From IMG/VR virus record IMGVR_UViG_3300034104_002149, positions 1 through 37,686 of that record: 37,686 bases of DNA. One strand, written 5' to 3'. The DNA comes from a virus. Lineage: Duplodnaviria > Caudoviricetes. A program made the translations under genes and the position numbers. The notes below the pieces were generated by a model. That model had not been told where the DNA came from. It did not search any database and saw nothing but the letters and a program-made list of their open reading frames with translations. Each line of letters begins with the position of its first letter. Within the stretch, counting starts at the first letter, position 1. Below, piece by piece: positions 5,396-37,622 of the stretch.

Positions 5396-6210
5396 TGAGC
5401 CACTTTAACACCTCAACCCAAACTGGTTTCGCTCGCTCGGCATCGGAGGCAATGTTTCCGAGGTTGTTTCCTGATGCTGGATGGTGGTGTCCGTCGCTTA
5501 ATCCTGCAATGGGTGGTACTCGATTGTGGGATCTGTCTGGGAGGCAGAACTGGGGCACGCTCACAAGCATGGATCCTGCTACTGATTGGGTCGTCAGCGG
5601 TGGTAAGGGTGCGTTGGATTTCGATGGGTCGAACGACCATGTTAACCTCGGACAGCGATCTCCTTTTCAAATCGACTTTTCTAGTCGTTTCTCAATATCT
5701 GCGTGGATAAAAACAACCGCGACTTCGGGCGGGATTATTGGTAAGCGAGTGCTTGCCGGTTGGTATTTTTCGATCGAAGGCGCAAATGTCATTGGTTTGA
5801 TTTTGCAGGGCACATCAAGCGCGATAATCGTTACGTCTGTTGCAAGCGGTGTGTCCGATGGAAACTGGCACCAAGTCGCTTGCACTTACGCAGGAAACTC
5901 AAATGCATCTGGTATTTCGCTGTTTGTCGATGGTCGGCAAGTGTCTACGACGACGGTGCTCAACAGTGCAGTCGGTTCTTTGCTAAACGCAATAGATACC
6001 ACGATTGGAGCTGTAACCACGAATCAATTTTTCCTTGCTGGCCAGCTAGATGACCTTCGCATTTACAACCGAGCCTTGACAGCGGGCGAAGTGCGTCAGC
6101 TATACAATGTCGGTCGCGGTAACATGCCGTTGAGACGCAGGCGAAGGTACACGGAGCAAGCGGCGGGCGGAAACAGGCGTAGACGAGTCTTACTAGGAGC
6201 AGAGTGCTAA
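5395..6210 (+). CDS. LamG / concanavalin A-like jelly-roll domain protein
   Basis: Motifs ALDFDGSNDHV, FSISAWIKT, DGNWHQVACTY, LFVDG and GQLDDLRIYNRALTAGEVRQLY. Arg-rich C-terminal tail. Confidence 0.9.
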   Translation: MSHFNTSTQTGFARSASEAMFPRLFPDAGWWCPSLNPAMGGTRLWDLSGRQNWGTLTSMDPATDWVVSGGKGALDFDGSNDHVNLGQRSPFQIDFSSRFSISAWIKTTATSGGIIGKRVLAGWYFSIEGANVIGLILQGTSSAIIVTSVASGVSDGNWHQVACTYAGNSNASGISLFVDGRQVSTTTVLNSAVGSLLNAIDTTIGAVTTNQFFLAGQLDDLRIYNRALTAGEVRQLYNVGRGNMPLRRRRRYTEQAAGGNRRRRVLLGAEC

Positions 6211-17211: not shown

Positions 17212-19006
17212 ATGTCCGCATTGCGATCAGTATTGCTCGAATGACATCCGACCCTATGTCTGCTCGTGCGGTGCCGTTTTTGGAAAGAATGGGTGGATTA
17301 CGACCATTACCGTAAAGCGAAGCATTAGTAAAAACTTGCACGACTACCATACAAAAAAAGCTTTGGACGGTCGAAAGGCTTGGTCGAAGCTGCATCGGAT
17401 CGAGCATGGAACGCCTGAACTATTCGAAGATTTCAAAAAGTACATGCCCGGCGGGTGCGAGTGCAAGAAGAAGGTTGATGCGATACTCAAGAAGATTCCG
17501 CCTCGCTACGGATCACCAGAAGAGTGGTTTGAGTTTACAGTCGAGTTTCACAACGAGGTGAATTTAACGCTTGACAAGCCTACCGTATCGCTGGATCGAG
17601 CCTACATGCTTTGGCGCAATCGAAGACCTAGCACCGGGAAAACCCGAGCTGTCATCACGGTGGCAAACGGCGTGGAGTTTTCGCAGATACTTGCTACAAC
17701 CAGATCGCACATGCAGGCTTATGCTGACAGGGTAAACGCCGATCTGATCGACCTGGACAACGACACTGAGACTTGGGGGCCGATGGAGAAATTCAGGGTT
17801 TACGAGTTTGCTAAGCAGTACGATGAGGTGATGTTTGTGGATGCCGACTGCATCATCACCGAAAACTGTCCAGACTTATTCAGCATGTTCAAGGGCGATG
17901 TGGTGATCCATGACGATTACGGTGTTTTGAGATCCCCGTCGATCATCAATGAAGAGCGCAAGAGAGTGTCCAGGCTGTCCGGAGTGGATATTCCGATACT
18001 GGAGACGGCCTTCAACACTGGTGTAGTGATCACTCGCGGAGAGGCAAAGCACATCTGGATACGACCGACTGTTGAAATAGGAACGTCTCGCTTCGCCGAA
18101 CAAGTGTGGATTGAAGGTCACATCAATCGCAACAATTTCCGCGTTGACGCGCTACCGCACCAAGCCAATTGGCAGTATTGGTACGGAAAGCACAGCCAGC
18201 CAATAACGCCATTTGAGGATGGTGTTCGTGGCGCATGGATAGTACACGCCTCAGCCAGCACGCAAAAGCTTTCGACGGTCAAGAGGGTTTCTGACCACCT
18301 TTCGATCAAGAATCCTCAGCCTCCGATAAGCGGACTTACTGCCGTGACATCATTGTCGCTTCTGCCGCATCACATCAAGGTTCAAGAGCGATGTTTGCAG
18401 TCTTGGGTGGATATGGGATTGAGGGTTGTTGCTGGAAACTCTGAGAGAGACATTGCTCAGTTGCGGGAGATCTATCCGTATGTCAATTTTGTACCTTGCC
18501 GACAGTCTAGTTCTTACGATCGACCGACTACGAGGATTTACGATCTTTTGCATATTGTTTCCGGAGCGTTTTTGCTGATAAATTCAGACATTGAGATGCA
18601 CGGATCGCAGTCGATACTGCTCGACGCGTTAAAATCCAGGGAAAGACTGATAGGACTTCGGCACAATTACGATCACGGGATATTTGAAACAAACATCGAA
18701 AGATGGGGAATTGATGCGTTTTTATTGTTCCCAGAGGATGTAGAATCATTCCCAGACCTGGATTTTGCGATCGGGCAGACAATGTGGGATTGGTGGGTTC
18801 CGATTCACTTAGAGAGCATAAAAGCCAAAATACGTTGGATTGGCGAGCCGTTTTTCTTCCATAAGTCGCACCCAGTTCACTGGAAACAGGAATCCCTGCA
18901 AATTGGCAGGGAAATGCTGCATCAGCAGTACAAAGTTCCAGTTGAGCACCCGTATTGGGAGTCTTGGAGGAAAGACAGACCGTTTAGCGACGGGGTTGCG
19001 ATTTAG
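17174..19006 (+). CDS. Fusion protein: Cys-cluster N-terminus, Erv1/Alr sulfhydryl-oxidase-like domain, two GT-A glycosyltransferase-like domains
   Basis: Erv-like motifs GRKAWSKLH, PGGCEC and WFEFTVEFHNEVNLTLDKP. The first GT domain has MFVDADC, FNTGV and EQ (GT8/GT34-like). The second has LLINSDI, GIDAF, WDWW and HKSH. Confidence 0.75.
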   Translation: MTAVQEKTVGSCKCPHCDQYCSNDIRPYVCSCGAVFGKNGWITTITVKRSISKNLHDYHTKKALDGRKAWSKLHRIEHGTPELFEDFKKYMPGGCECKKKVDAILKKIPPRYGSPEEWFEFTVEFHNEVNLTLDKPTVSLDRAYMLWRNRRPSTGKTRAVITVANGVEFSQILATTRSHMQAYADRVNADLIDLDNDTETWGPMEKFRVYEFAKQYDEVMFVDADCIITENCPDLFSMFKGDVVIHDDYGVLRSPSIINEERKRVSRLSGVDIPILETAFNTGVVITRGEAKHIWIRPTVEIGTSRFAEQVWIEGHINRNNFRVDALPHQANWQYWYGKHSQPITPFEDGVRGAWIVHASASTQKLSTVKRVSDHLSIKNPQPPISGLTAVTSLSLLPHHIKVQERCLQSWVDMGLRVVAGNSERDIAQLREIYPYVNFVPCRQSSSYDRPTTRIYDLLHIVSGAFLLINSDIEMHGSQSILLDALKSRERLIGLRHNYDHGIFETNIERWGIDAFLLFPEDVESFPDLDFAIGQTMWDWWVPIHLESIKAKIRWIGEPFFFHKSHPVHWKQESLQIGREMLHQQYKVPVEHPYWESWRKDRPFSDGVAI

Positions 19007-21443: not shown

Positions 21444-24400
21444 ATGAGTGATTTTCTTGAGTTGTTTAAGAAAAGGCTTCAAGAAAGAGAGTCTGGAAGC
21501 TTGGCAAGTTTTCCAGCACAGGAAAGCAGCGGGACTCCTGGCTCCCTTGGGGCTCCACCTCAAACGTATGAAGACCCTCGCGAGAGGGCGATCATGGAAA
21601 AAAGAACCAAGGACTCTGGCAACGACTTTCTTGATTTGTTTTCGTTGAGATTAGCAGAGAAGCAAATTGAAAACCGTCGCCAACAGCGAGCCTACGCCGA
21701 GAAAGCACCAAAAGAGATTGTTGAGCCAACGAAGCAGATGCTTGCAAGTCGCAAAGATAGAAGCAAGCTTCTAGAGGTGTATCGAAAGTTGACACCCGAG
21801 CAGAGGCAAGAGGCTCTTAGAGTTGCTCCTGGTATTGGGCAGCAAATGGGCGACGATCGCGGAGGGATGCCATCTCGGATTGCCGAGTCTTTTGGTCTTG
21901 GCATCACGCAGATGGTTTCGCAACCGTACATGGAGCTTGCTGGCACTGGTGGAACAAAAGAAGAGATTGAGTTTATTCGCAAGCTTGATGCGATCGCCGC
22001 ACAAGAGTTTGATCCGGCTCTTCCGAGCGATCCTTGGTACGAGAGAGGGCCGCTGCAAGCCGCTCAGATGACTCCATGGATGGCAACGATTGTCGGAAGC
22101 GGTGGTCTGGGGGGTGTGATTGGGAAGGGTGGTGGAACACTGCTGGCTAGAGGTGCTGCAACGGGCGTTCCTGGAGCCAAGACGGCGTTCCAGACGGCTG
22201 GTGCTATCGGTCGAGTCCCAACTGCTATTGGATTAAAGGGAGCGACGACAAAAGGCGTTTTCCAGGGTGCTGGCACGCTCGCTGGCATCACAGCGGCGGG
22301 TTTCCCTGGCATGTACGCCCAAGAGGTTGACCAGCTCAAAGAGCTCGGAATGGAGGACGATTGGAAGTTGCGATTGCTTGCCGGTGGAACGGCGGTCGTT
22401 GGTGGTGCGGTTGAAGGCATTATCCCGAATCCGTTTGGCGGTAAGGTTAATTTTACGCAGGGCGCCATGAAGGCGGCTCGCCAATACCTATGGGAGTCGA
22501 TCAAAAAAGCTCCCGCTGAAATGTCCGAAGAATACATACAGGGCGTGACAAGCGGTTTGGGTGAGCACATCGCGCAGTACATCGCTGACGAGAAGGAGAT
22601 CGATTTTGGCGACGGGGAGAAGGTCAAGAGCGGCGTAAAGAAGAAGTCGATCGCCGACGCGTTTGCGAAAGGCTGGGAGCAGACCAAGGAAGCCGCTTTG
22701 CCAATGGCGTTTCTTTTGGGTGTACCTGCTGTTCCTGGTGCTGGACTTGCCGCTAGAAAAGCAAGGCTGTACGAACTCGAGCAAATAAGGGCTAAGCGTT
22801 TCGTGTCCGAAAAGGACGCTGAAGAGGCTGGCATTGAGGGTGACAACCGCAAGGAGCGAATGGCTAACCTGGAAGCCGAGGTTAATCGGATCACGCAGGA
22901 AATGCAGAGTCAGCCAAGTCCAGATGCGGAAATCGCGTCCATGGTTGGCGAACTTCCTCCCGAGACCGGCACCGTCGATCAACAGGGAGTTGTCGATCGA
23001 GATCCGTTTGAAGGGGAGGCTGGTCAGCCGCAAGTCGAAGCACCGATCACACCTGCCCCGCTTTACGAGGTCGCTGGTGATCAGAACATGGTGGCTAGGG
23101 TCTGGCAGAATCCTCAAGGGTTCTTAGTGAACCTCACGGATATAGACTCCGGTGAAGTGTTTCCGACTGCAAGCATCTTCCCGACGTTTGAGCAAGCAAA
23201 GCAGCACGCCGATACTGTTCGGTTGCCACAGCAGTCTCAGGTTGCACCGCCTACAGCCGGAGATCCGTTTGTGGAAGGCGAACAGCAGCAGGGTGCTCAG
23301 CAACAGACTCCAGCTTCGTTTGCAGCGCGGATGGCTAGAGGCGAGCAGATGACTTTGCCAGAAGATCAGCAGTATCGCATAAACAACGCAGCAGAGATTG
23401 AAGCCGAGTTGCAAAAGCTGATGCCGCCAACTGGAATAACGGCATCGCAACCACCAGCCGCACAAAACCCGTTTGAACCTGGAGTTTTACCACCACAAGG
23501 AGAAATCCCCGATGCCAGCGCAATACGAAGCCCTCAAGAGGAAGTACGACAAGAGCAAGGCGGCGCAGATCTACGTGGGTCTGGGCAAGAGCAAGTACCA
23601 GCGCAGCCAGAGAGCCAAGAGCCTCCAGCACAAGCGGAAGTACAAGTAGGGGAACTTCCAGAACCAAAGTCGGCGGAAGAAGTCGAATCGCTTCCAAAGT
23701 TCTCGCTTTACAAAACTACCGTTCAAGGCAAAGACTACATCGCCATTCGAGGGGATGGGCGAAGGGGTGGCGGCGACGAGTTGTATGAGTCTTTTGAGGA
23801 AGCCTCGCAAAAGGTGGAATCCAGGAGGTCTCAGGAGCAAGCGGCTATCGAAGCTGCTCAGAAGAAAGCCGAGCAGGAATCCGCTGCTGCGGAGGAACGA
23901 TCTAAGAATCTACCGTCGTATCGAGACTGGAGGTTTAACTCGACAGCAAGAAACTCAGGGAAGATCGTTCCTAATAAGGTCGGCGTAAAGTTCCTGCCGG
24001 ATCAAATGCAGTCGATCGCAAACTGGGCAAAGTCACAAGGTTTCTCGGTTTCAAACGTCACGCCAACTGGAATCAAGGTTCTCGATCCATCTGGCAAACG
24101 CTTGGACATCTCCATGTACGGTGCTGCTGGAGTCAAGGACGAAAAGGCAAAGGCAGCTAAAGCACAACAAGAAGCGGATCGCCGTAAAGCTGATGAAGAG
24201 CGCAAGAAAAAGACTGATAGCCGAAAGTCTGCGTCGTGGATTACAGAGACATTCGGCGGTGTGATAAACGACTATAACCGTAATGCTCTTTCTGATTTTC
24301 TTGAAGGAGACACCGACAAGTTCAAGGGTATGGTGTCCGCAAATTGGAGATCTGGGCTTGAGAAGGTTGGTGCCTTGAGTCCAGAAGGCAAGATCGATTG

Positions 24401-27400
24401 GGGTAAGGTCAAGTCAGCTTATGCCTCAACCGAACAGGCGGCAAAGCCAGAGACCGGCGAAAAGCCGCAAGCAGCGTCTCAATCAACTAAACCTTTGGTA
24501 GTCAAGCAGCGACTCAAGAATGCGGTGCGATTTGCTCCCGATACGGTGATTCCCGAGGGCGTTCCGTTTACCAGAGGCAAGCACCCTGCGTTTGGTGATT
24601 ACATCGAGGTTTTCAGTTCTCACCTCGATCGCATTCCTGGCTACTCAAAAGATCTGCCATCGGAGGGAGGTAGAACGCAAGCAAAGGTTCCATCAACGCC
24701 ATCTGAAATGGAAGCTGAATTGAGGGAACGTGTCGTCGAAAAAGTACAGCTAATGTATGACACGAAAAACTGGAACGAAACTGGCATTACCGCTGTGATC
24801 AAAACCGCCGTTGATGCTGAGTTTGGCGCTTTGACTACCGAAGTCGCCTACGCTGGAGACATTTCTCCAGAGTTGCGAGACTGGATCAACGGTTTCAATG
24901 CCAGCGAGTTCACCGGCATGGTGCGATCTTACCTTGGAAGAAATGAATCCAAGCCAGTGGCAACTGAGAAGTCGCCTGCTCAAAAACGAGACGAACGTCT
25001 TGATGAGTCAGAGGAAGCCCGCTTGTTTAGCGAGAACTTCATTAAAATTGTAGCCGATGACGTTTCCAAGATACGCAAGCAAGATATTTATCGATTGCTG
25101 TCGGAAGTCCCCAGCGAGCGAGCTGGCTATTTCGAGTGGTGGCTGATCAGGAGGCGTCCAGATCTGGCTGGAGAAATCAACGAAGCATCCAATGAAATAC
25201 TCGCTGAAAGAGCATCGCAAAAGAAGCCAGCCGCAGAACAGCCTCAAGCAGAAGGCGAGATGAGCGTTGAGGACTTCGTTAATGCTTTTGCTGGAACAAA
25301 GCAACCTGAGCCCAAAAAAGGCAAGAAGCCTACCCCTGTTAAGGCAGAGCCAGTAGCAGAGGAAAAAACGGAATACAGTGAACTAAAGCAGAATGTGGCA
25401 GGCATCGCCAGAACGATTCGAGCCATCAAAGGCAAGGATGTCCTGTTAATTGAATACAGCAAGTATTACTACACATGGTCAATTAGGAACGTTGACTCCA
25501 AGCAGGACATTGCCGGTGGAATAACCGATCTTAAACGCGCAAAGAATGTTGCCGAACGAATCTTTGCAGGCACGTTTGATATCGAAGCAGACAAGCGATT
25601 CACCATCACGGACACTCAGAGTTTAGCCTACTCGAACCAGAAGCTTGCAAGCTTGTGGGACGACGCTGGAAGGGCGATGCGTTTTGTTTCCGCCCTGCGA
25701 GATACTGGTTTCTACACCGATGGCAGGGTACTGATCAAGGTTTCTGAGAAGGACAGGGATGCGATACTAAAAAGCTCGAAATTGTCTGGAGAGACATTTC
25801 CTGCTCAAATCCAGGGAGTCATCGATTCCGCTAAAAAGCTTTCCAGTTACAGCGACAACGAAATGTCTCCTGCTGGTTATCGCGGGGGCGAATTGTCCAT
25901 AAGGACTGCCGTATTGAAAAACAAGACTGGTCAGTACGCAATTGTAGACAAGGCGTACCATGACACGATTATGAAGCGTCACCCGACAGCTAAGATATGG
26001 GGTAGCGAGGACAAGGGGCAAGCGATCAAGCAAGCGGTTCTTTACACGGTCGACGGCGAGCCCGTAGGTGTGCTTATGCCTATGGCGGCAGACAAAGAGG
26101 ACAAATACCTCACCGCGCTACTAGAGGGTAAGTACGAGGACGTAAAACCTACGGAGGCAGTCCCGCCAAAGAAACCAAGGACGCTCAAAAAAGAGCCGAA
26201 AGAAGGCGTTAAAGAGGGTCTGGACAAGGCTAAAGAGGGAGCCAAGCTGTTTATCGAGGGTATCAAGGACGCTGCCAAAGGCAACACTCCGTTTGCGAAC
26301 ATCCCGATGAATGAAAAGATCGCTCGCGGTCTTGGAATGATGGCTGACGGTCTGATTGAGGCTGGCAAGTACAAATTTGTCGACTTCATTGAATCGGTAG
26401 TGGAACTTGTCGGCATACAGAACGCCAGAAGCTATGCAAAGTACCTTGAGGCGGGTTGGAACAAGAAGGCTGAGTTTGACGATCGGCTCGATCAATCGCA
26501 GAGTGTTTTGGCTCTACTGGAAGAAAAGGAAACGGAAGATGGAAAGCAACAAGGTGAGCGTGGATCCGATCAAAACCTCCCAATGGGAGATGGCACTGGA
26601 GAACCTCAAGGAGATGGAGCCAGAGGCGACTCGGCAAATGATGCGGAACGGGACTCTAAAAAAGGAACTGGACCGCAGGGTGATCAGGTACTTCCAACTG
26701 ACGCAGAAACTACAGGCGTCGATGGACGAGGAGGCGGCGAACGAGACGGCACAGATGGAAGTGTTGACGCCAATCAACCCGAGCAAGGATCGACAGAAGG
26801 CACTGACGGAAGCGGAGGAACTACAGATAAGCAAATGGGCGGTCGGGTTGCAGTCAACCACGTAATCTCTAGCGAGGACGATCTGGCGGTCGCGAGTGTC
26901 ACGGAAAGCCTAAAGCGAAACATCAAGGCTTTGCAGATACTCAAAAAGCTAGAAGTAGACGGCAGGTTTCCAGACGAGTCGGAACGCAAGTCGCTGGCTC
27001 AATACACTGGTTGGGGTGGACTTTCGCAAGCTCTTGACTCGATAAAGGGGGAGCGAATGCTCCAGGGGTCATGGAACAGAGATGAAAACTGGGAGAAGAA
27101 ATGGGGTGACTCATACGTTAAGCTAAAGGAAATTCTAACTAAGGAAGAGTTCCAAGCCGCCCAAAACAGCACCGAAAACGCTCACTACACAAGCAAAGAT
27201 GTAATCCAGTCTCTTTGGAAGATAGCAGAGCGACTTGGGTATAAGGGCGGACGGGTTCTTGAGCTCGGCGCTGGAGTTGGTCACTTTGCTGGTCTTACAC
27301 CTTCGAGAGTTCGCGGTGTTACGCAGTTTACGATGGTCGAGATGGACAGCATTAGCAGTCGCATTGCCAAGATGCTTTATCCTTCGCACGACGTATTTTC

Positions 27401-30400
27401 TGGTGATATGCAGCAGTTTAAGGCTGTCCCTGGAAGCGTTACGATTGGCATCGGGAATGTTCCGTTCGCAGGCGGAACGGTAGCTGATTCCAATAAGCGA
27501 TACGGGGAGCCACTAAACCTTCACAATTACTCGATCGCCCGCCATTTAGATGCGTTGGCTCCAGGCGGGGTAGTTGTGGTGATTTCATCGCACAACACGC
27601 TAGATTCAAACATCAAGCAGAGAAAGCTACTCGCGTCCAAAGGTGAGTTGATTGGGGCGATTCGCCTGCCCAATGACGCATTTGCATCTAACGCAAAAAC
27701 CGAAGTCGTTACGGATATCCTCGTGTTTCGAAGACCGAGACAAGGAGATCCTGCGATCGGAGTACGGTTCGATCAGAACGTAGACATTACTGTAAAAAAC
27801 AAGGACGGTAAGGATGTAACTAAGCAGATCAATCGGTATTTTGTTGAAAACCCAGAGATGGTTTTGGGTACTCACTCTGCTAAAGGTTCGATGTATGCCG
27901 CAGATGAATACACCGTAGAAAGTACGCCTGGGGACTTGCAAAGCAAGATCAATGCAGCGATCGAAAAACTTCCGAGGGATATTCTCGGGACTGTATCAGT
28001 TGCCGAGTCAGTTGTCGCTACAGATGCGTCTATCCCGTTCGGAAGACTCGAAATGCGGGGCAAAAATGTTGTTATGGGCTACGGCGATTCGTTTACACCA
28101 ATAGCCGGAAAGAAGTTTGAAGGTTTTCCAGTTGACCTAACAGGTAAAACTGGTGTCGCGAGAGCTAAAGACTTTATTGGGTTGCGAGATGCGTTAGCCT
28201 TAGCTAGAGAGACTATGCTAAGCGAAGAAGCATCCGAAGATGACGTTAAAAGCGCACAGAAAAAACTTGGGGACGCATACGATAAGTACGTGGAAAAGCA
28301 CGGCAATCTGAATGACAGAAAGACCAGTATATTTAAGCGCGATCCGGATTACTATCGTGTCCTCGCCTTGGAAAACGAAAAAGGAGAGTATGACCCAGCT
28401 TCCAAGAAGATAGTCATAACGTACAGCAAAGCGTCTATTTTCACGGAAAGGGTCTTGGGGCCGCAGAGGGAGCCGACATCAGCAGCAAGCCCTGCCGATG
28501 CAATGTCAATTTCTCTAGCATGGAAAGGCGCTATAGATTCTGCTTACATTGGAAGGCTGTTGGGCTTAGACGCAATCGAAGCCGAGGCGAAGCTTATCGA
28601 AGAAGGTCTAGCGTTCAGAAACCCATCCACAACGCAACTAGAGATGTCTGACCTTTACCTAAGCGGAAACGTCCGGTCGAAACTTGAGCAGGCTAAAATT
28701 AGTGCCGAGGAAGATCCGCAATACCAAAAAAATGTCGATGCGCTTGAAAAGGTGTTGCCGGAACCAGTTGCGCTTAAAAAGGACACAGTGCGTCTTGGAG
28801 CAACGTGGATACCAGAAAACGTCATATCTGCATTTGCCGCACAAGCATTCGGTACTGAAATAGGAGTGTCTTACAATGCGAATACCGACTCCTGGACGGT
28901 AGGTACTCCTTACGGTATTTCGGAAACAGCAAAAGCAAGGTATCAGACTGAAAGAATTAGACCGCATGAAATTCTTGCCGAACTTCTGAATCTGCGATCC
29001 ATAAAAGTTTTCGACAAGGTTGAGACTGGCGAATCTGACAGTTCCGGTAGACCGAAGACTACGCAAGTTTTGAACGAAAAAGAGACGCAAGCCGCCAAGC
29101 ACAGGGCTTCTGTTATGCGAGCAGATTTCGAGAAGTGGGTTCTCGAAAACAGAGACGTTTCTCAGGTACTCGCAAAGATTTACAATGAAAGATACAACAA
29201 CTTCGTTCGTGCTAAATACAACGGGGATTTTTTAACGCTTCCTGGATCGAATCCGGAGGTCAAGTTACGTCCGTATCAAAAGGACGCAATCTGGAGGATT
29301 ATCAATCGCGGAACCGCCCTTTTGGCTCACGCTGTTGGAAGCGGAAAGACCTATACAATGATCGGCGCGGCGATGGAGATGCGTAGGCTCGGTATCGCTC
29401 GTCGCCCGTTGCTAGTCGTTCAAAACGCAACGCTCGGTCAGTTTGCAACCAGCTTTCAAAAAATGTATCCAAATGCCAAGGTTCTTGTTGCAACAAAAGA
29501 AGACCTTGGGAAAGGCAAGCGTCAGCTTTTCTTAAACAAGATAAGCACAGGTGACTGGGATGCTGTTGTCATGGCGCAGAGCACTCTGGACAACATGGCA
29601 TCTGATGAGAATGTTGAGCGTGCGTTTATTCAGGATCAGATAGACTTGCTCGAAGAGTCGATAAGAGAAGAAGGCGGGGCGCATTCAAAAACACCAACGG
29701 TCAAACAACTGGTTCGACAAAAGAAATCACTACAGGACAGGTTCGACAAGTTAATGGGAAGTCGAGCCAAGAAAGGAGACAACGTTGTATTCGAGGACTT
29801 GAATGTAGATGCGTTGTTTTTGGATGAGGCGCATGCTTACAAGAAGCCTACTTTTGCAACCAAGCTGTCTAACTTGGTTGGACTGAACACCGAGTCCAGC
29901 GCGAAGTCTTTAGCGACGATGATAAAAGTTAGGTCTGTTCAATCAGCCAACAACGGTAGAAACGTGATCCTTGCCACGGGGACTCCAGTAACAAACACTC
30001 TCGGTGAAGCATGGCACATGGTCAACTATGTTTCTCCAGCAACAAACGCGGCGTTTAACTCGCGAACCTTCGATCAGTTTATCAGCAACTTCGCTATGGT
30101 TGAGCCAACGTTGACAATGAACGCCGGTGGACAATATGTCTACAAAGATGCTATTGTAAAATTCAGAAACGGCAGGCAACTCGTTGAATACATTAACGAC
30201 AGTTGGGATATTGTAACTCCGGAAAACTTGCGGGCTTACATGGAAAGCAACAAAAAAGGCTTTCCTGTTTTGAGGAACGGAAAGCTTACCGCAATAACTG
30301 TTGATAGAACTCCTGGCGTAGCAAGCTTCATGGCGTTTATAGAAAGCGTTTATGCTAGATACAAGAGCCTAAAGGCTAAAGAAAGAAGGGAGTTAAGTTT

Positions 30401-33400
30401 TATACCGGCTTTGGCTTATGGAGCATCAAAGGCAGCCACCCTGGATATTCGGCTAGTTAGACCAAACGCAGCGGAGGAGAAAAACTCAAAACTCCAAGTT
30501 GCTGCCGATGAAATAACGCGAATATACGAAGAGTCGATGGAAAACAAGGGAACGCAACTTGTGTTTTCTGATGTCAAGAATCCGTACAGCATGGATCGCA
30601 TAAACCAGTTCATGGGCGGAGAGGCTATAAGCGCCTTTGAGGTTGACGATCAGATGGAAGGCGATGTGGTTGCTGAAGAGGCTCCAAGCGACTCCGACAG
30701 CTTTTTGTATCAAGAGTTAAAACGAAAGCTTCTTGCTTCTGGCATTCCTAGTGAGCAAATAGCGTTTATCTCTGATGCAAACACGGACGCAAAGCGACAG
30801 GCGTTGTTTCAAAGGGTGAACAATGGCGATGTGCGAATCTTGATTGGAAGTACCTCTAAAATGGGGGTTGGTGTCAATGTCCAGCAAAAGCTAGTCGCAA
30901 TACATCATTTCGACACCCCTTGGTTGCCAGCCGACCTTGAACAGCGAGAAGGGAGGATCCTGCGGTTCGGCAACGAAAATGAAATCGTAGAGGTGCTTCG
31001 GTACGCCATGAAGAAAACGCTCGATGGAGCTATCTACATGGGAACATCGAGAAAACAGAAGTTTATCTGGCAAGTTTTGAACGGTCAGCTTGATTCTGAC
31101 ACGTTCGACGATCCTTCGAGTGCTTCGATGTTAAGTATTGAAGAACAGCTCGCGGCGATTCAGGACGACCCAGTGTTCTTCGAAAAGATTGAGGTTCAGA
31201 ATAGGCTGCGAGAACTCGAACTTGAGCGACAATCGTTCTTTGATGCGCAACAAAGAGTTGCTGATTCTTTAAGGAACACCGAAAGCGATTTGAGATACAG
31301 AAGGGACTCGATAATCCCTCAACTTAAAAGCAGGCTGGATCGGATCGGTGAGATAAAAAAGAAAATCGAGGACGCTGGCGGATCGCTTGATGCGTTCTCA
31401 GCTAGGATAGACGGAAAAGACTACACTGACCCCAAAAAAGCCGATGAGGCTGTAAAAGCTAAGCTTGAGGAGGCTAAAAGGTATGTAGCCAAAAACTTCG
31501 ACAGCTTGCAAACTGTTTTTGCGGCTGGCGGATTGCTAAAGCTTAGCAGGAATCAATTAGTGACGTTTACTATTGGGCCTGCAAATGTAGCAATTGGGCT
31601 TGAGCCAATGTATATGCAAGAGCTTAACGACGAAGGCAAGGAGGTGACAAAAGCAGTCGCAAGGGCTAGGTCTATCGCTTACTTGATCGAGCCTTCCGGG
31701 GACTACATTTTCTACGAAGGCAATGCTACCGTCCCGGCAACATTCTTCGAAAAGATGGGCAATGTGCCCAATGATGTTAGGAGAGAAATAGAGAATAGCG
31801 AGGATTTGGTAGTTAGGTATGAGTCAAAGATAGCTGAGTTGAAAACACTACTTGGTAAGCAATGGGAAGACGAAGCAGAGTACCAGGAAAAAACTGGTAG
31901 ACTTTCGGAAATCGAAGCGATAATGCTTGCAAGTGGCGGTTCTCTCTCGGAAAAGAAAGCTGACGAGAAAACCGAAAATGAGCCGGAAGGAGATTCGGAT
32001 TTAGACAACAACCTCCGCAACCTCCCGCCACCGCTTTTCCAGACCGCCCCAGACGTAAACGAGAATATGTGGTCGGAGGCGTTGAACCTCTCCATCGCCG
32101 CTCAGGACGCTGGAATCAAGAGCCTACGCGACTTCGTTGCCTACTCGGTCAAAACCATTGGTCGCGATCGCACGTTGCAGGTGAGCCGTTTCCTTCGCTT
32201 AGCGGCAGAAGTCGCAGGCATGGATGGTGTACAGCAGGCGGCAGCCGTCTCGGGCATCACACGCGATCAAGTTGTCACGATGGCAAAGAGGGCGTTTGGC
32301 AAGAGGCTGTCCGAAGATCAGATTGAAACTGGAGTTACGATCGAGGACATCACCGCGTTCGGCAGAAACGAGATCGGATTTGCTCCGTTCGGAACGCCGG
32401 TGCCTGAAGAGGCGATGGCACAAGAAGATTTCGACCAACCATCGGGCTACAAGTTCACCGAGAGCGAATACCGTCCTGCCGTCGTGTCATACGCTCGCGA
32501 CAAGTGGGGTGAGAAGATTGCACCAAACGGTAAGCCGACATGGCAAAACTTCGTGCGGTGGTTTGGTGATAGCAAGGTGGTGGACAAGGACGGAAAACCT
32601 CTGGTTGTGTATCACGGAGGCGCAAAAACAATAGACGGCAATACTGTTCGCACGCCGTTCTTTTACATGACCGCCAACAGGTCTGAAGCGGAATACTGGG
32701 CGGGAGAAAACGGCAGAGTTCACGAGGTCTACCTGAAGTTCACCAAGCCATATCGGGACAGTCAGCACGACGACCGATTTATGGATATGGAGGAAAGAGC
32801 GCAAGATTACGATTGGGACGATCCCGAGTTTGCCGAAGAACTGCGAGAGGTGACGAGGGAAGCTGTATCTCGGATGAATGAGTTGAAGGGTCAAGGGTAC
32901 AACAGCATTGTGATGCAGGGGGAAGCAGATGAGAACTACGACAACTTCATTGCCTTCGACCCAACCCAAATCAAATCAGCAACGGGTAACGCTGGCACGT
33001 TCGACCCAAGTAATCCAAACATGCTCATGCAGAGGGCAACACAAACCGACACGCCAGCGTTCAAGGCTTGGTTTGGCGATAGCAAGGTGGTGGATGAGGA
33101 TGGAAATCCATTGGTGGTTTACCACGGGCGTGCATCTGGATACGATATTTTGAAAGGGGGAATGGGCGTCCGAACAGGACTTCACAGCGAGGGTATCTGG
33201 TTCACTCCGAACCCAGACTTTGCTTCCGAGTTTGCTGAATACGCACTACCGGAGGGTGGTGCTGGTCCAAACGTAGTTGCGGTTTATCTTTCAATTAAAA
33301 ACCCTGCGACTGTATACAACGAAGAACTTAGGTACGTGCGAGTCGCTGACCTGAAAGCACAAGGGTACGATGGCGCGTATGACGCTCAAACAGGAGCGTG

Positions 33401-36400
33401 GATCGCTTTTGACTCGGAGCAGATCAAGTCGGCCACCGGCAATCGCGGCACGTTCGACCCGAACAACCCTAGCATCTTGATGCAGAACCAACAGCAGGGT
33501 GGCAGCGTCAAGGGCTGGACGAAGTTCATCAGCGCACATCGAGCATTGATCGGAGCGACAAGCAAGGCAGACTTCTCGACGTTCATCCACGAGTTCTTCC
33601 ATCCGATGCGACTGTTCCTGCTCAACAAGAGCGTGCCAGCCGAAAAGCGTGCCGACATCACCGACGAGGAAATCGAAGCGTTAGAGAAGGCGAGCGGTGC
33701 TGGAAGCTTTGTGAATGGCAAATGGGTAACGAAGTGGGATGTGAAGGCGGAAGAAAAAGCCGCCAAGATGTGGGAGCAGTATTGGTATGAGGGTGACTCT
33801 CCGAATAGCGTCCTCGATTCTTTGTTCCAGAAAATCTCCCGTTGGATGCGAGAAGTCTACAGTGGCATTCAGGAAATCACTGGAACGCCTCTCCCCAAGG
33901 AAATCCGCGATCTGTTCGACAAGTTGGTTCAGCGAGGGTTGCCAGCCGACCAGCGTGGCGGCAAGGGCGGCGAGCCTGTTTCCAGGGGCGAGCCCGTCTT
34001 GCGTCCAGTAGACCCAGTGACGAGCATCAAGAACGAGGTGGCTAACCGAATAGCTCTACTTCGAGGATCCCCCGGGCTGGTGGAACCAGAAGCCCAAACG
34101 ATGGACGAATGGCTAGAGGAGGCTAGCAACAGGCTTAGGCAGGATCCAACCCTCGGAGATCGACTGGTTAAGGAATTGGATGCTGATCCTACAGGCCCAG
34201 ACCAAATTGACACAGCGGTCTTGCAGATGCACTACCGGGGGCTTAACAACGCTCTCTATGCGGCTCAGGATCGATTGTTTGCAGCTAAAGACCGAAAGGA
34301 CAGCGTTGCCGCAGCCAAGGCACTCAAGGAGGTTGATGCGATAACAAACTCCCTTGAGGAGATAGAGCGAGTCAACAAAAAGATCGGAACTTTGCAAGCA
34401 AGATCGTTTGCAGCTAGGAAAATCACGCTATATGCAGATTTCTCTCGCGCTGCATTGGAACGGCAAGGAAGGGCTGCCAATGGCGGTGAGAGGCTGAACG
34501 AAGAGCAATTGAGGCAAATTGCTGAACTGGCTGCGGAACTGGCGAAGGTTCAGGGCGACTTGGCGAAAGCCGAGCAAGTGATTGCCGACCTTCAACGGCA
34601 GGATGGTGTGCGTCAAGTGGTCGACGACGACTTGAAGAAAGCACCCAAGCCTAAAGCCAAGAGCGAGCCACGGCAAAAAGCCGCCACGGCAGTGCAGAGC
34701 TTCGTCAAGAAGTTCTCAAGCATCTTCAAGCCCAAGAATGGCTCTGACACGCTGATGCAGACCGAAGACGAACGAATGGCTGAAGAAGCCGAGAGCGTCG
34801 TCATGGCATACGTCGAAGCTGGCGTATTCTCCTACGGTGAACTGCTAGCCAATTTGCGCAAAGAGATAGGTGGCGAACTGCCTGTTCAGGCTCAGGCGGC
34901 TTTTGCGACCGCATGGGAGAAGATCAAGGCGCAAGGTGAAATCCCGATTCCTATGGTCAGCCCTGGGGATGTTGAGGGGCTTACCCGTATCGCTCGTGAG
35001 ATCCAAATAGCGATTATTGAAAGCGGAATCGTCACGGCGGATCAAGAAGACCGTGCCGAAGTCGTCCTCGATGCAGTCTGGAGATCGCTCCAAGAGATCG
35101 ACCCAGAGATCACCGAGCGGCAGACAATGGATGCGCTGAGTGGATACGGGCAGTTTACGCCGATTTCCAAAGACGAAATGAAGCGACTGCAACGCGACAT
35201 CAATGGTCAGTTGCTCCAAATGGCGAAGATCAAGGACTTGGAAGCCGATATCCGCCCCAAGGCTACGGGTGCTCAGCGTCGTGAAATGTCCGACGAGGAA
35301 CGAGCGTTGGTGCGACAGGTCAATGAATTGAAGCGCAATAGCAAGCTCTATACCGAGGATGAGCAGGGGCTCTTGACGACAGCAATCGGTGCGGCAATGC
35401 GGGCTACGAAAAACCGCATCAGGGATTTGCGCAAGGCTATGGATGAAGGCAAGCCGATCGCCAAGACGCAGGTAGACTTGGCGAGCAAAGACAAGGATTT
35501 GGCTGAGCAAAAGCGAATCCTGGCGGAAGTTACCAAAGACTACCGCGAGATGTTTCCTCGGCAGGGAGCGACCAAGGAGCAACGGCTTGCAGCAGCTCTC
35601 AGGGCTACCGATCGGGAGATCGAAAGGGTTACGGAACAACTCCGCACCGGAGATTTCTCGCCTAGAGGTCGTGCTGAGCCCGTAACGAGCGCAGAACTGA
35701 GAGCCAAGCAAGCAGAGCTCGAATCGTTGCGTGCTCAGAGGGACGCGATTAAGGCACAACAGAACCCCAAGATGAGCCCTCAAGAGCGAGCAGAGGTAGC
35801 TTATATCGCCAACCTGAAAAACAGGATTGCGGATTACGAAGATCGCATGGCGCACGGCTACTTTGGAGCAAAACCCAAGAAAGCACCGCTTGAAAGCGAC
35901 GAGATAACCAAGCACAGGAGGCGGCTTGAGGAAAAGAAAGAGGAGTTCTTCCGTTTGGCGGCAGAATGGCGATTGTCGCAGTTGAGCCCCAAAGAGAGGG
36001 TTTTTGACTGGGCTCGGGAGATTTCATTCCTGGCAAGAGCGATTATGACATCCATGGACTTGTCGGCGGTGTTCCGCCAGGGCGGCCCAGGGACGTTCGC
36101 CCACCCAATGCTTGCTAAAGAAGCAGCAAAGGAAATGCGACGGGCTATCTTCAGCCAAGAGGAAGAGTTTAATATCGCCGAGAACATCAAAAAGCACCGG
36201 CTTTATCCACTTGCCGTACAAACCAAGCTAGATATCACAACAAGTGCCGGAGCGATTCAAAATCAAGAAGAAGCTTTTTACGGTCGCTGGGCACGGGACG
36301 GCATTGGCAAGAAGGGCACAAAGATCAACAAGATCAGCAAGGCTGTTTTGACACCTGTTGCAATGTCTGCGAGGGCTTACACGACCTACCTCAACGGCTT

Positions 36401-37622
36401 GCGGTTCCGGCTGTTTGTCTACTTCGTCGATACCCTCGGGGCTAACGGCCAAGTGACGCTGGACGAAGCCAAGGCGATTGCCAATTTTATCAACGTATCG
36501 ACCGGCAGAGGGGACTTCGGGAGTTTTAACAAGGTAGCCGCAAACCTCAGCACCGTCTTGTTCGCACCTAGATACCTCGCATCTCGCTTCGCATATCTAG
36601 GGTTGCCGTTCTACATGCTTCAGGATGCCAAGGTTTCCGGCAGGGTTAAGCGGCTCATCGCCATGGAGTACGCTCGGCATGCCCTCGGTGTGGCTGGATT
36701 CCTAGCAACCGCCGTGGCACTCGGAGGATTACTGTACGACGACGATGACGAGGAATCGCCAACCGTCGAACTGGATCCGCGATCGACCGACTTCATGAAA
36801 CTCAAGATTGGAGAGACGCGAATCGACCCGCTGTCCGGCTTTGGTCAAATCGCTACGTTCATCTCGCAAGTTAGCCTTGGCCAGAAAAAGACGATGGAAG
36901 GCGAGATCATTGACATTCGCGGTGAGAAGAAGAAGTACGGGCAAGACGGCACATTCGATGTGACAGCCAACTTTATCCGCAAGAAACTCGCACCGATCCC
37001 CGCCGCTGGCATTAACATCATTGCCGGCGAGGATGTTGTTGGCAACAAAGCAACGGTAGCCACAGCGACCACAGGACTGTTCATTCCTCTGGCTGCACGG
37101 GAAGTCGTTGAAACGCTGATGGCTCGTGGTGTGCCAGAAGGCCCAGCGATCGCCATGCTGAACATCCTCGGGATGAGCGGTGGAACTTACGGCCCAAAGA
37201 CCAAGTACAAAAACGCCAACGCAGAGGAACGCAAAAAGCTGATCGAGAAGGATCTCGAAGCGATGGAATGGGACTCGAAGGATCCAGGCTACAAGGACTT
37301 CTTGACCAAGGACGAGCTTGAGCGATTCAAGCAGCGACGAGAGCAACGCAAGCAATCGCTAGTCTACTCTGCTTCAGCCAACCCGAAACGCAAAGACTTC
37401 CAGGACGACACGACCTACGCCAAGGCTGTTGCAGAGAGAGACAAGGCACTCAAGACCATGGTTGATGGAAAGATCGGGCCAGAAGAGGCAAGATTGCTAC
37501 TGCTGGCATACTGGCGCAGGAACAACAAAACCCTGTACGAGCGCAAAGGTCAGGTGCTTGTGATGAAGGACGCATTGGTCGAAAGATTGCGTCAAATTAC
37601 GCAAAAATTGAATCAAAAATAA
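21444..37622 (+). CDS. Giant polyvalent virion-associated protein (5392 aa): DarB-like N6-adenine MTase, SNF2 helicase, two ART-like domains, HExxH motif, C-terminal LPD-type helical region
   Basis: Uninterrupted 16.2-kb ORF. MTase motifs ELGAGVG (27261) and GNVPF (27453). Helicase motifs LRPYQ, HAVGSGKT (29328), DEAH (29823), TGTP and QREGRILRFGN. WFGDSKVVD..G.PLVVYHG occurs twice, and HEFFH is at 33588. Confidence 0.9.
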   Translation: MSDFLELFKKRLQERESGSLASFPAQESSGTPGSLGAPPQTYEDPRERAIMEKRTKDSGNDFLDLFSLRLAEKQIENRRQQRAYAEKAPKEIVEPTKQMLASRKDRSKLLEVYRKLTPEQRQEALRVAPGIGQQMGDDRGGMPSRIAESFGLGITQMVSQPYMELAGTGGTKEEIEFIRKLDAIAAQEFDPALPSDPWYERGPLQAAQMTPWMATIVGSGGLGGVIGKGGGTLLARGAATGVPGAKTAFQTAGAIGRVPTAIGLKGATTKGVFQGAGTLAGITAAGFPGMYAQEVDQLKELGMEDDWKLRLLAGGTAVVGGAVEGIIPNPFGGKVNFTQGAMKAARQYLWESIKKAPAEMSEEYIQGVTSGLGEHIAQYIADEKEIDFGDGEKVKSGVKKKSIADAFAKGWEQTKEAALPMAFLLGVPAVPGAGLAARKARLYELEQIRAKRFVSEKDAEEAGIEGDNRKERMANLEAEVNRITQEMQSQPSPDAEIASMVGELPPETGTVDQQGVVDRDPFEGEAGQPQVEAPITPAPLYEVAGDQNMVARVWQNPQGFLVNLTDIDSGEVFPTASIFPTFEQAKQHADTVRLPQQSQVAPPTAGDPFVEGEQQQGAQQQTPASFAARMARGEQMTLPEDQQYRINNAAEIEAELQKLMPPTGITASQPPAAQNPFEPGVLPPQGEIPDASAIRSPQEEVRQEQGGADLRGSGQEQVPAQPESQEPPAQAEVQVGELPEPKSAEEVESLPKFSLYKTTVQGKDYIAIRGDGRRGGGDELYESFEEASQKVESRRSQEQAAIEAAQKKAEQESAAAEERSKNLPSYRDWRFNSTARNSGKIVPNKVGVKFLPDQMQSIANWAKSQGFSVSNVTPTGIKVLDPSGKRLDISMYGAAGVKDEKAKAAKAQQEADRRKADEERKKKTDSRKSASWITETFGGVINDYNRNALSDFLEGDTDKFKGMVSANWRSGLEKVGALSPEGKIDWGKVKSAYASTEQAAKPETGEKPQAASQSTKPLVVKQRLKNAVRFAPDTVIPEGVPFTRGKHPAFGDYIEVFSSHLDRIPGYSKDLPSEGGRTQAKVPSTPSEMEAELRERVVEKVQLMYDTKNWNETGITAVIKTAVDAEFGALTTEVAYAGDISPELRDWINGFNASEFTGMVRSYLGRNESKPVATEKSPAQKRDERLDESEEARLFSENFIKIVADDVSKIRKQDIYRLLSEVPSERAGYFEWWLIRRRPDLAGEINEASNEILAERASQKKPAAEQPQAEGEMSVEDFVNAFAGTKQPEPKKGKKPTPVKAEPVAEEKTEYSELKQNVAGIARTIRAIKGKDVLLIEYSKYYYTWSIRNVDSKQDIAGGITDLKRAKNVAERIFAGTFDIEADKRFTITDTQSLAYSNQKLASLWDDAGRAMRFVSALRDTGFYTDGRVLIKVSEKDRDAILKSSKLSGETFPAQIQGVIDSAKKLSSYSDNEMSPAGYRGGELSIRTAVLKNKTGQYAIVDKAYHDTIMKRHPTAKIWGSEDKGQAIKQAVLYTVDGEPVGVLMPMAADKEDKYLTALLEGKYEDVKPTEAVPPKKPRTLKKEPKEGVKEGLDKAKEGAKLFIEGIKDAAKGNTPFANIPMNEKIARGLGMMADGLIEAGKYKFVDFIESVVELVGIQNARSYAKYLEAGWNKKAEFDDRLDQSQSVLALLEEKETEDGKQQGERGSDQNLPMGDGTGEPQGDGARGDSANDAERDSKKGTGPQGDQVLPTDAETTGVDGRGGGERDGTDGSVDANQPEQGSTEGTDGSGGTTDKQMGGRVAVNHVISSEDDLAVASVTESLKRNIKALQILKKLEVDGRFPDESERKSLAQYTGWGGLSQALDSIKGERMLQGSWNRDENWEKKWGDSYVKLKEILTKEEFQAAQNSTENAHYTSKDVIQSLWKIAERLGYKGGRVLELGAGVGHFAGLTPSRVRGVTQFTMVEMDSISSRIAKMLYPSHDVFSGDMQQFKAVPGSVTIGIGNVPFAGGTVADSNKRYGEPLNLHNYSIARHLDALAPGGVVVVISSHNTLDSNIKQRKLLASKGELIGAIRLPNDAFASNAKTEVVTDILVFRRPRQGDPAIGVRFDQNVDITVKNKDGKDVTKQINRYFVENPEMVLGTHSAKGSMYAADEYTVESTPGDLQSKINAAIEKLPRDILGTVSVAESVVATDASIPFGRLEMRGKNVVMGYGDSFTPIAGKKFEGFPVDLTGKTGVARAKDFIGLRDALALARETMLSEEASEDDVKSAQKKLGDAYDKYVEKHGNLNDRKTSIFKRDPDYYRVLALENEKGEYDPASKKIVITYSKASIFTERVLGPQREPTSAASPADAMSISLAWKGAIDSAYIGRLLGLDAIEAEAKLIEEGLAFRNPSTTQLEMSDLYLSGNVRSKLEQAKISAEEDPQYQKNVDALEKVLPEPVALKKDTVRLGATWIPENVISAFAAQAFGTEIGVSYNANTDSWTVGTPYGISETAKARYQTERIRPHEILAELLNLRSIKVFDKVETGESDSSGRPKTTQVLNEKETQAAKHRASVMRADFEKWVLENRDVSQVLAKIYNERYNNFVRAKYNGDFLTLPGSNPEVKLRPYQKDAIWRIINRGTALLAHAVGSGKTYTMIGAAMEMRRLGIARRPLLVVQNATLGQFATSFQKMYPNAKVLVATKEDLGKGKRQLFLNKISTGDWDAVVMAQSTLDNMASDENVERAFIQDQIDLLEESIREEGGAHSKTPTVKQLVRQKKSLQDRFDKLMGSRAKKGDNVVFEDLNVDALFLDEAHAYKKPTFATKLSNLVGLNTESSAKSLATMIKVRSVQSANNGRNVILATGTPVTNTLGEAWHMVNYVSPATNAAFNSRTFDQFISNFAMVEPTLTMNAGGQYVYKDAIVKFRNGRQLVEYINDSWDIVTPENLRAYMESNKKGFPVLRNGKLTAITVDRTPGVASFMAFIESVYARYKSLKAKERRELSFIPALAYGASKAATLDIRLVRPNAAEEKNSKLQVAADEITRIYEESMENKGTQLVFSDVKNPYSMDRINQFMGGEAISAFEVDDQMEGDVVAEEAPSDSDSFLYQELKRKLLASGIPSEQIAFISDANTDAKRQALFQRVNNGDVRILIGSTSKMGVGVNVQQKLVAIHHFDTPWLPADLEQREGRILRFGNENEIVEVLRYAMKKTLDGAIYMGTSRKQKFIWQVLNGQLDSDTFDDPSSASMLSIEEQLAAIQDDPVFFEKIEVQNRLRELELERQSFFDAQQRVADSLRNTESDLRYRRDSIIPQLKSRLDRIGEIKKKIEDAGGSLDAFSARIDGKDYTDPKKADEAVKAKLEEAKRYVAKNFDSLQTVFAAGGLLKLSRNQLVTFTIGPANVAIGLEPMYMQELNDEGKEVTKAVARARSIAYLIEPSGDYIFYEGNATVPATFFEKMGNVPNDVRREIENSEDLVVRYESKIAELKTLLGKQWEDEAEYQEKTGRLSEIEAIMLASGGSLSEKKADEKTENEPEGDSDLDNNLRNLPPPLFQTAPDVNENMWSEALNLSIAAQDAGIKSLRDFVAYSVKTIGRDRTLQVSRFLRLAAEVAGMDGVQQAAAVSGITRDQVVTMAKRAFGKRLSEDQIETGVTIEDITAFGRNEIGFAPFGTPVPEEAMAQEDFDQPSGYKFTESEYRPAVVSYARDKWGEKIAPNGKPTWQNFVRWFGDSKVVDKDGKPLVVYHGGAKTIDGNTVRTPFFYMTANRSEAEYWAGENGRVHEVYLKFTKPYRDSQHDDRFMDMEERAQDYDWDDPEFAEELREVTREAVSRMNELKGQGYNSIVMQGEADENYDNFIAFDPTQIKSATGNAGTFDPSNPNMLMQRATQTDTPAFKAWFGDSKVVDEDGNPLVVYHGRASGYDILKGGMGVRTGLHSEGIWFTPNPDFASEFAEYALPEGGAGPNVVAVYLSIKNPATVYNEELRYVRVADLKAQGYDGAYDAQTGAWIAFDSEQIKSATGNRGTFDPNNPSILMQNQQQGGSVKGWTKFISAHRALIGATSKADFSTFIHEFFHPMRLFLLNKSVPAEKRADITDEEIEALEKASGAGSFVNGKWVTKWDVKAEEKAAKMWEQYWYEGDSPNSVLDSLFQKISRWMREVYSGIQEITGTPLPKEIRDLFDKLVQRGLPADQRGGKGGEPVSRGEPVLRPVDPVTSIKNEVANRIALLRGSPGLVEPEAQTMDEWLEEASNRLRQDPTLGDRLVKELDADPTGPDQIDTAVLQMHYRGLNNALYAAQDRLFAAKDRKDSVAAAKALKEVDAITNSLEEIERVNKKIGTLQARSFAARKITLYADFSRAALERQGRAANGGERLNEEQLRQIAELAAELAKVQGDLAKAEQVIADLQRQDGVRQVVDDDLKKAPKPKAKSEPRQKAATAVQSFVKKFSSIFKPKNGSDTLMQTEDERMAEEAESVVMAYVEAGVFSYGELLANLRKEIGGELPVQAQAAFATAWEKIKAQGEIPIPMVSPGDVEGLTRIAREIQIAIIESGIVTADQEDRAEVVLDAVWRSLQEIDPEITERQTMDALSGYGQFTPISKDEMKRLQRDINGQLLQMAKIKDLEADIRPKATGAQRREMSDEERALVRQVNELKRNSKLYTEDEQGLLTTAIGAAMRATKNRIRDLRKAMDEGKPIAKTQVDLASKDKDLAEQKRILAEVTKDYREMFPRQGATKEQRLAAALRATDREIERVTEQLRTGDFSPRGRAEPVTSAELRAKQAELESLRAQRDAIKAQQNPKMSPQERAEVAYIANLKNRIADYEDRMAHGYFGAKPKKAPLESDEITKHRRRLEEKKEEFFRLAAEWRLSQLSPKERVFDWAREISFLARAIMTSMDLSAVFRQGGPGTFAHPMLAKEAAKEMRRAIFSQEEEFNIAENIKKHRLYPLAVQTKLDITTSAGAIQNQEEAFYGRWARDGIGKKGTKINKISKAVLTPVAMSARAYTTYLNGLRFRLFVYFVDTLGANGQVTLDEAKAIANFINVSTGRGDFGSFNKVAANLSTVLFAPRYLASRFAYLGLPFYMLQDAKVSGRVKRLIAMEYARHALGVAGFLATAVALGGLLYDDDDEESPTVELDPRSTDFMKLKIGETRIDPLSGFGQIATFISQVSLGQKKTMEGEIIDIRGEKKKYGQDGTFDVTANFIRKKLAPIPAAGINIIAGEDVVGNKATVATATTGLFIPLAAREVVETLMARGVPEGPAIAMLNILGMSGGTYGPKTKYKNANAEERKKLIEKDLEAMEWDSKDPGYKDFLTKDELERFKQRREQRKQSLVYSASANPKRKDFQDDTTYAKAVAERDKALKTMVDGKIGPEEARLLLLAYWRRNNKTLYERKGQVLVMKDALVERLRQITQKLNQK
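23512..23649 (+). CDS. Nested +1-frame small basic protein (45 aa) inside the giant gene
   Basis: AAGGAG at 23497-23502, a 9-nt spacer, ATG 23512 and TAG 23647-23649. Translation: MPAQYEALKRKYDKSKAAQIYVGLGKSKYQRSQRAKSLQHKRKYK. The host frame here is a low-complexity Q/E/P linker. Confidence 0.6.
   Translation: MPAQYEALKRKYDKSKAAQIYVGLGKSKYQRSQRAKSLQHKRKYK
26539..26865 (+). CDS. Nested +1-frame TnpV-like helical protein (108 aa) inside the giant gene
   Basis: AAGGA at 26526-26530, 8 nt before ATG 26539. Translation: MESNKVSVDPIKTSQWEMALENLKEMEPEATRQMMRNGTLKKELDRRVIRYFQLTQKLQASMDEEAANETAQMEVLTP... The host frame is a G/D/E/R-rich disordered linker over nearly the same span. Confidence 0.65.
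   Translation: MESNKVSVDPIKTSQWEMALENLKEMEPEATRQMMRNGTLKKELDRRVIRYFQLTQKLQASMDEEAANETAQMEVLTPINPSKDRQKALTEAEELQISKWAVGLQSTT
32547..33485 (+). repeat. Tandem duplicated ADP-ribosyltransferase-like module within the giant gene
   Basis: Two units (about 32547-33032 and 33045-33485) with near-identical ends: TGGTTTGGyGATAGCAAGGTGGTGGA at the start and QIKSATGN.GTFDP.NP..LMQ at the end. The middles are divergent. Confidence 0.85.

Follow-up and report, generated by a model that had tools for sequence, protein, structure and literature searches.

The nested gene and its host

The IMG/VR record IMGVR_UViG_3300034104_002149, analyzed here over its whole length of 37,686 nt (hereafter, the window; a record of 37.7 kb with an estimated completeness of 59%), carries the gene of a giant DarB-like polyvalent protein, which is presumably an ejection or internal virion protein. 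A second and far smaller gene, encoding a basic microprotein, is nested in the +1 frame of this giant and lies in its variable linker region, downstream of the conserved N-terminal domain (Table 1). The product has a computed mass of 5.4 kDa, 14 K/R and 2 D/E residues, a net charge of +12 and a pI of 10.4. A preliminary description of the DNA had proposed such a highly basic 45-residue peptide, preceded by a strong Shine–Dalgarno (SD) motif; coordinates, frame, residues and motif all agree with those reported there.

The giant contains 20 ATG-initiated open reading frames (ORFs) of at least 40 aa in the +1 frame, three of which, the nested gene among them, have a strong SD. By anti-SD pairing energy, the nested start ranks third among the 151 alternative-frame starts of the giant, and its surroundings are weakly structured, 198 of 200 shuffled sequences folding at least as well. 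The third codon position is G or C (GC3) in 40 of the 45 codons; 45-codon segments of the giant with GC3 this high start only between 23508 and 23562 (0.36% of segments). No sigma-70 promoter was found on the + strand between 21000 and 24500. The basic charge of the peptide alone is no evidence for a gene, since a basic composition is the default in the +1 frames of such giants; basic ORFs starting with MP numbered 102 in the +1 frames of long ORFs from 81 loci, most of them without an SD.

Table 1. Features of the nested locus in the window and nested ORFs in related giants.
Feature	Sequence	Coordinates	Strand	Remarks
Host gene, 5392-aa DarB-like polyvalent protein	window	21444..37622	+	phrog_10089, ResIII/SNF2, Helicase_C, two ART-PolyVal stretches
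Conserved N-terminal domain of giant	window	21702..22910	+	normal third-position variability in host frame
SD motif AAGGAG of nested gene	window	23497..23502	+	9-nt spacer to ATG 23512
Nested gene, 45-aa basic microprotein	window	23512..23649	+	ATG 23512, TAG 23647-23649; +1 frame of giant
Giant-frame reading of nested-gene DNA	window	23511..23648	+	acidic aromatic-free linker, 9 D/E, 3 K/R
Other nested microprotein	L160	8976-9134		phrog_2423 type
Other nested microprotein	L164	from 8272		phrog_2423 type
Other nested microprotein	L166	8520-8732		phrog_16759 type
Other nested microprotein	L175	from 8619		phrog_16759 type
Other nested microprotein	L185	9423-9593		phrog_16759 type (weak)
Other nested microprotein	L183	8700-8852		no match
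Further SD-like +1 ORF, peptide-less giant	L033	12227-12559
Further SD-like +1 ORF, peptide-less giant	L034	9530-9814
Further SD-like +1 ORF, peptide-less giant	L034	12806-12973
Further SD-like +1 ORF, peptide-less giant	L167	6927-7136
Further SD-like +1 ORF, peptide-less giant	L131	12684-12794

Selection on the two reading frames

Across 17 nested loci (136 non-independent pairs), the ratio of nonsynonymous to synonymous differences (pN/pS) was 0.50 in the peptide frame versus 1.27 in the host frame, with identities of 66% and 47%, respectively. Identity was higher for the peptide than for the host reading in all 20 disjoint pairs, which were picked from the tree by hand and, for the second peptide subtype, compared over the first 36 codons only. 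Position 3 of the peptide codons varied more than position 2, which is the wobble position of the host, in 18 of 19 untied pairs; the N-terminal domain of the giant, used as a control, showed the reverse, the host third position being the most variable in all five comparisons. SD-like motifs were present upstream of 37 of 42 nested and 27 of 48 free-standing starts, compared with 235 of the 2044 remaining +1 ATGs of the same hosts; these counts exclude L073 (internal TAG) and L099 (near-identical to L097). Four further intact, SD-led nested copies came from contigs found via the host protein (L129, L162, L180/181 and L200). These patterns indicate that the nested peptide is under purifying selection in its own frame, which bears out the frame-specific check suggested in the preliminary description, and a real, translated gene is very probable.

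The host frame bears the imprint of a second constraint. At peptide position 3 of the nested copies, T is found in none of 534 stop-forming contexts and in 6% of 853 others, while the corresponding values for free-standing copies are 27% of 658 and 25% of 992. The host reading across nested copies consists of 18% D/E, 10% K/R and 0.6% aromatic residues or Cys, and it recurrently has D/N at the nested start (38/44) and V at the nested stop (32/44). Nested copies have a GC3 of 0.84 against a background of 0.61, and free-standing ones a GC3 of 0.61 against 0.59; the high value of the former is explained by selection on the host frame to stay open, acidic and aromatic-free. The 48 free copies contain 178 stops in their −1 frame and no trace of the host frame. 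Together, these results indicate that the host frame is kept stop-free, acidic and nearly aromatic-free through recoding of the peptide's third positions. The G/C-rich third positions, first taken as a mark of a real coding frame, are thus real but atypical of coding frames in these phages, and reflect the recoding. Likewise, the notion of the host frame as a featureless by-product holds for its poorly conserved residues, but not for its open, acidic and nearly aromatic-free character.

The peptide family and its loci

A single-sequence search recovered five other database proteins at 82–88% identity to the peptide, and a 12-sequence profile search extended the family to 117 proteins among 1043 candidates; 42 representatives are present in a library clustered at 50%. 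By sequence similarity, the nested peptide is a member of this hitherto unnamed family, the mean net charge of which is +10 (137 sequences). Two subtypes can be distinguished, with the first helix pair common to both (hhalign 99.3%). The family module corresponds to the N-terminus of Thermus phage YS40_168 (hhalign 85.8%) and is also found in nine longer database proteins of 123–162 aa, being internal in one of them. P0150, P0152, P0154, P0158 and P0072 combine the hairpin with further small basic modules; one of these looks HNH-like by eye and gave no Pfam match.

Including the window, 111 loci were collected, 52 nested, 56 free-standing and 3 unclear; one of the searches that supplied them retained 80 of its 103 confirmed matches. 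Removal of identical peptide DNA left 95 loci: 44 nested, 48 free and 3 unclear, so that both kinds of homologue anticipated in the preliminary description exist. Two of the three loci from genome contigs are nested. All 44 nested copies lie in the identical phase and begin 261–1394 codons into host ORFs of 657–5392 aa, some of which are cut by contig ends. Pfam matches, including LPD38, ART-PolyVal, InPase, ddrB-ParB and SLT, were obtained for 10 of the 22 hosts scanned and for none of the other 12. Diverged phages retain the start and stop of the peptide gene. In four free copies, the gene overlaps a long frame of the other phase, and three of these frames are the large terminase; they are read as end overlaps, because the terminase homology in L087 starts at codon 99, near the peptide end.

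Homologous linkers with a missing SD or ATG, or with stops in the +1 frame, had been named as evidence that would count against a gene. Most homologous giants do lack the cassette, but no certain decayed copy was seen among those examined, two being ambiguous. In L073 (~8001–8150), codon 15 of the nested copy is an in-frame TAG; as all eight long ORFs of this locus end in other stop codons, the TAG may encode a residue, or else the copy may be broken. L132 (11481–11603) contains an SD-led nested ORF with family-like ends and a dissimilar middle, possibly a degenerate member.

A tblastn search of GenBank phages with family peptides found no full family copy, and no cultured phage that carries one. 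Matches in the gp16-like genes of Nufs112, KL01 and Reminis were regarded as chance, because by coordinates they are in frame with the host gene, and an Erwinia tblastn match was set aside (E 0.7). P0008 (690 aa) clusters with P0004, showed no likeness on reading and was ignored; a weak A4 match in G015 lacks the family start. A literature search of titles and abstract openings, with supplements outside its scope and subscription journals mostly absent, yielded nothing on these peptides or on nesting within polyvalent genes. The word 'overlapping' does not occur in the main text of PMC5512222, whose supplements could bear on the point.

Structure, conserved residues and remote similarity

AlphaFold2 modeled the window peptide as three short helices (residues 3–11, 14–23 and 28–38; predicted local distance difference test (pLDDT) 87.5) and the second subtype as a two-helix hairpin with an open tail (pLDDT 86.5). 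Residues M1, P2, Y5, A17 and A18 are invariant, I20 and Y/F21 are nearly so, and the basic tail is variable. Since the conserved positions are hydrophobic or small rather than basic, they suggest a specific docking surface combined with a charged tail. This pattern of conservation lends no support to the nucleic-acid-binding or DNA-condensing role suggested in the preliminary description.

The peptide matched no Pfam or PHROG family at E 0.001, giving only sub-threshold hits to DUF7218 and Carla_C4, and Foldseek returned no match at E 0.001 in the PDB or BFVD. Structure comparison by VIA gave best Z scores of 3.7 (root-mean-square deviation 3.1, 45 residues aligned) and 5.3 (2.6, 37 aligned), and the best E-values of PDB sequence searches were 0.085 and 0.34. 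A ChaB-like relationship found no support in the family, structure or PDB searches, which bear on it indirectly. DUF7218 (PF23855) is a possible distant relative: it spans ~47 positions, matches five relatives weakly over the first helix pair (E 0.001–0.003) and is an Atlas neighbour at 0.84. All scores nevertheless lie below its 27-bit gathering cut-off, with 12.2–13.7 bits for the window peptide and at best 19.6 among 30 relatives.

Origin of the nested arrangement

The preliminary description considered the peptide to be overprinted on the giant. This is probably the wrong way round: 48 of the 95 loci are free-standing and the nested copies do not form one clade. On an unrooted tree of 93 rows and 54 columns, the nested state switches 20 times, with starred branches forcing a minimum of 8 of these switches, and monophyly of the nested copies is rejected (p-AU 3.8e-5). 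The peptide is thus probably the older frame and has moved in or out of giants repeatedly, while the linker reading likely arose later, given the broad occurrence of family members as free genes. As the tree is unrooted, it would also accommodate repeated escape from an ancestral nested state.

Comparison with relatives suggests that the gene behaves as a cassette. In the 30 nt after the nested stop, identity to the window drops to 0.17–0.50 in all 11 relatives, three of which are identical to the window at positions −60 to −31. One lake contig diverges from the window at 23650, straight after the nested stop, and L034 tracks the window's giant until shortly before the cassette and then differs. 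The inference we draw is of cassette capture, an old free gene having entered a region in which these genes exchange domains.

In L009 (8773–10165), L028 (81–2214) and L029 (240–867), free copies follow an upstream gene that stops 1–4 nt before the ATG and has the same phase relative to the peptide as the host frame of nested copies; in L009 and L029, a giant begins ~250 nt downstream of the free copy. The idea that two ejection genes fused with the small gene between them is not supported, because the gene upstream of the L009 and L028 copies resembles the gene upstream of the giant in L014 and not the N-terminus of a giant.

Other nested microproteins and further ORFs

Other putative SD-led basic microproteins occupy a similar position in the +1 frame of other giants (Table 1). 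Those of L166 and L175, and weakly that of L185, also match the N-terminal parts of PHROGs that carry the label virion structural protein (two PHROGs for L166 and L175). We tentatively propose, as an idea somewhat short of an even chance, that whole late microgenes repeatedly use the linker behind the N-terminal domain as a landing site. The basic MP-start families captured there in the +1 frame, and recoded at third positions to an acidic linker, would number at least three and be unrelated to one another, their products being interchangeable capsid-interior cargo or targeting modules.

A second candidate nested gene, of 108 aa, is read in the giant's +1 frame at 26539–26865 of the window (+ strand), just 5' of the methyltransferase region; it has an AAGGA motif upstream, similarly lacks T at third positions, and gave no Pfam or PHROG match and no convincing homologue. 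The structural region of the window encodes a subtilase protease (1862–2806), a laminin-G-like protein (5395–6210) and a 610-aa protein (17174–19006) with a sub-cut-off Erv1/Alr match.

Possible functions of the peptide

On balance, we lean towards an accessory internal head protein. The nested gene would be translated from its own ribosome-binding site on late mRNA; the product would dock by its helical hairpin inside the procapsid, and its basic tail would neutralise DNA. Its origin would lie in a small late gene that already existed and was taken up into the domain-shuffling linker of the polyvalent gene, the −1 reading then serving as linker. Comparison of sequences establishes the features on which this interpretation builds, namely an SD, a start and a stop belonging to the gene itself, purifying selection on the peptide, recoding that leaves the host frame open and acidic, free relatives, repeated switching and patchy presence. 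Of the 51 non-nested loci, 24 have, no more than three ORFs away, a gene for a terminase, portal, adaptor, capsid or tail protein or for a giant, by a hand tally with no background control, and two lie beside a DNA polymerase. Polyvalent genes sit among late virion genes (PMC5512222, in part), and P1 DarB and T4 IPIII carry capsid-targeting signals at their N-termini (PMC9024508, in part).

Several points weigh against this interpretation. The loci were found via the peptide and are hence ascertained for its conservation, the tree rests on 54 columns with its bootstrap not settled, and the PHROG labels are not traced to experiments. About 20 of the 51 non-nested loci are without an annotated neighbour, only some neighbours having been scanned, and viral contigs selected for hallmark genes are counted in the tally. 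Among 49 whole records, drawn from 81 loci found by the N- or C-terminal domain of the giant, 7 carry a family match, as do 6 of the 27 near-complete ones; four of these six are seeds of the host alignment, and 2 of 23 near-complete records remain once seeds are removed. The genomes G001 (100% complete) and G002 (92%) share the N-terminal domain at 65–71% identity and have no family member. A hidden Markov model scan of all 81 loci gave matches in 11 loci on 9 contigs. This distribution marks the nested gene as accessory; since most related phages lack it, neither assembly nor loading of the giant can require it.

The patchy distribution would also suit a real gene whose product stays in the cytoplasm late in infection, as a nucleic-acid- or ribosome-binding regulator or an anti-defence factor with no part in the virion. 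The two free copies adjoining DNA polymerase, others adjoining a methyltransferase, an acetyltransferase or GroES, and the anti-restriction-type cargo represented by the host gene point the same way. We nevertheless regard such a role as unlikely, since the annotated neighbours are mostly head, packaging or tail genes and similar modules head proteins labelled virion structural.

Rather improbable is a role in loading the giant, as its dedicated chaperone or adaptor, with nesting coupling the two, by analogy with P1 Ulx, which is given as aiding DarB localisation (PMC9024508, in part). Although 44 copies lie inside giants, three free copies directly upstream of one, and peptide and linker carry opposite charges, most related giants are without the peptide and most free copies are not adjacent to a giant. 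Moreover, the N-terminal parts of the hosts form many unconnected clusters, so that no common binding domain is apparent.

A cationic, outer-membrane-disrupting lysis peptide (a disruptin, like phiKT gp28) is very unlikely. Size, charge and helicity are similar (bioRxiv 10.1101/515445, in part) and a neighbour in L056 and L085 bears a lysis-category PHROG label, but large hydrophobic residues make up only 13% of the peptide, its grand average of hydropathicity is −1.46, and no holin/endolysin cassette was seen around the nested copies in the giant gene, the lysis genes of the phage in the window not having been located. The conserved N-terminal MP..Y motif, present also on a 361-aa protein, likewise argues against such a role. 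Finally, the recurring host-frame pattern could be taken to mean that there is no separate gene but a host-frame motif, an RNA element or a frameshift tail on the giant's N-terminal part, which is most improbable given the host pN/pS above 1, the stops in the −1 frame of free copies, the conserved ATG and SD, the stop codon immediately 5' of the nested ATG in L005, and the absence of a stable RNA fold at the start.

Implications and comparison with known systems

Gene callers of the usual kind retain the giant ORF and discard the nested one, so that about half of the family loci examined would escape them. The present analysis defines a family of basic microproteins with a putative, testable virion role, and it accounts for a linker pattern that recurs in polyvalent proteins by the presence of a concealed gene. 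It also offers a clean candidate example of overlap arising through capture of an old gene and recoding, for which free and nested copies serve as natural controls. If the landing-site proposal is true, giants of this kind would conceal an unannotated layer of the virion proteome, with overlapping genes formed by capture and not by de novo birth.

Basic, DNA-binding proteins of the virion include J of phiX174. The small or N-terminal modules of T4 IPIII and P1 DarB are similarly tied to the capsid interior (PMC9024508, in part). With J, IPIII and the DarB signals alike, no sequence match and no convincing fold match to the peptide was found, and the comparison is one of analogy only.

De novo overprinted viral genes resemble the present case in being internal +1 overlaps within disordered-looking regions (PMC8227390, in part). 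There, however, the new frame is usually without remote homologues, whereas here the +1 frame has a large free family and the linker reading is lineage-specific; de novo overprinting does not fit, because it is the nested frame that has the wide family.

A parallel in layout is provided by lambda Rz and Rz1: there, as here, a complete small gene with its own start occupies the +1 frame of a larger late gene, and nested and separate layouts both occur. Rz/Rz1 appears as a spanin pair in bioRxiv 10.1101/515445.

Embedded +1 genes are known in tailed phages, Rz1 inside Rz being one example. In contrast to Rz and Rz1, which are obligate partners in lysis, the nested peptide gene is optional, resides in polyvalent hosts of 657–5392 aa, and shares a similar slot with unrelated families.
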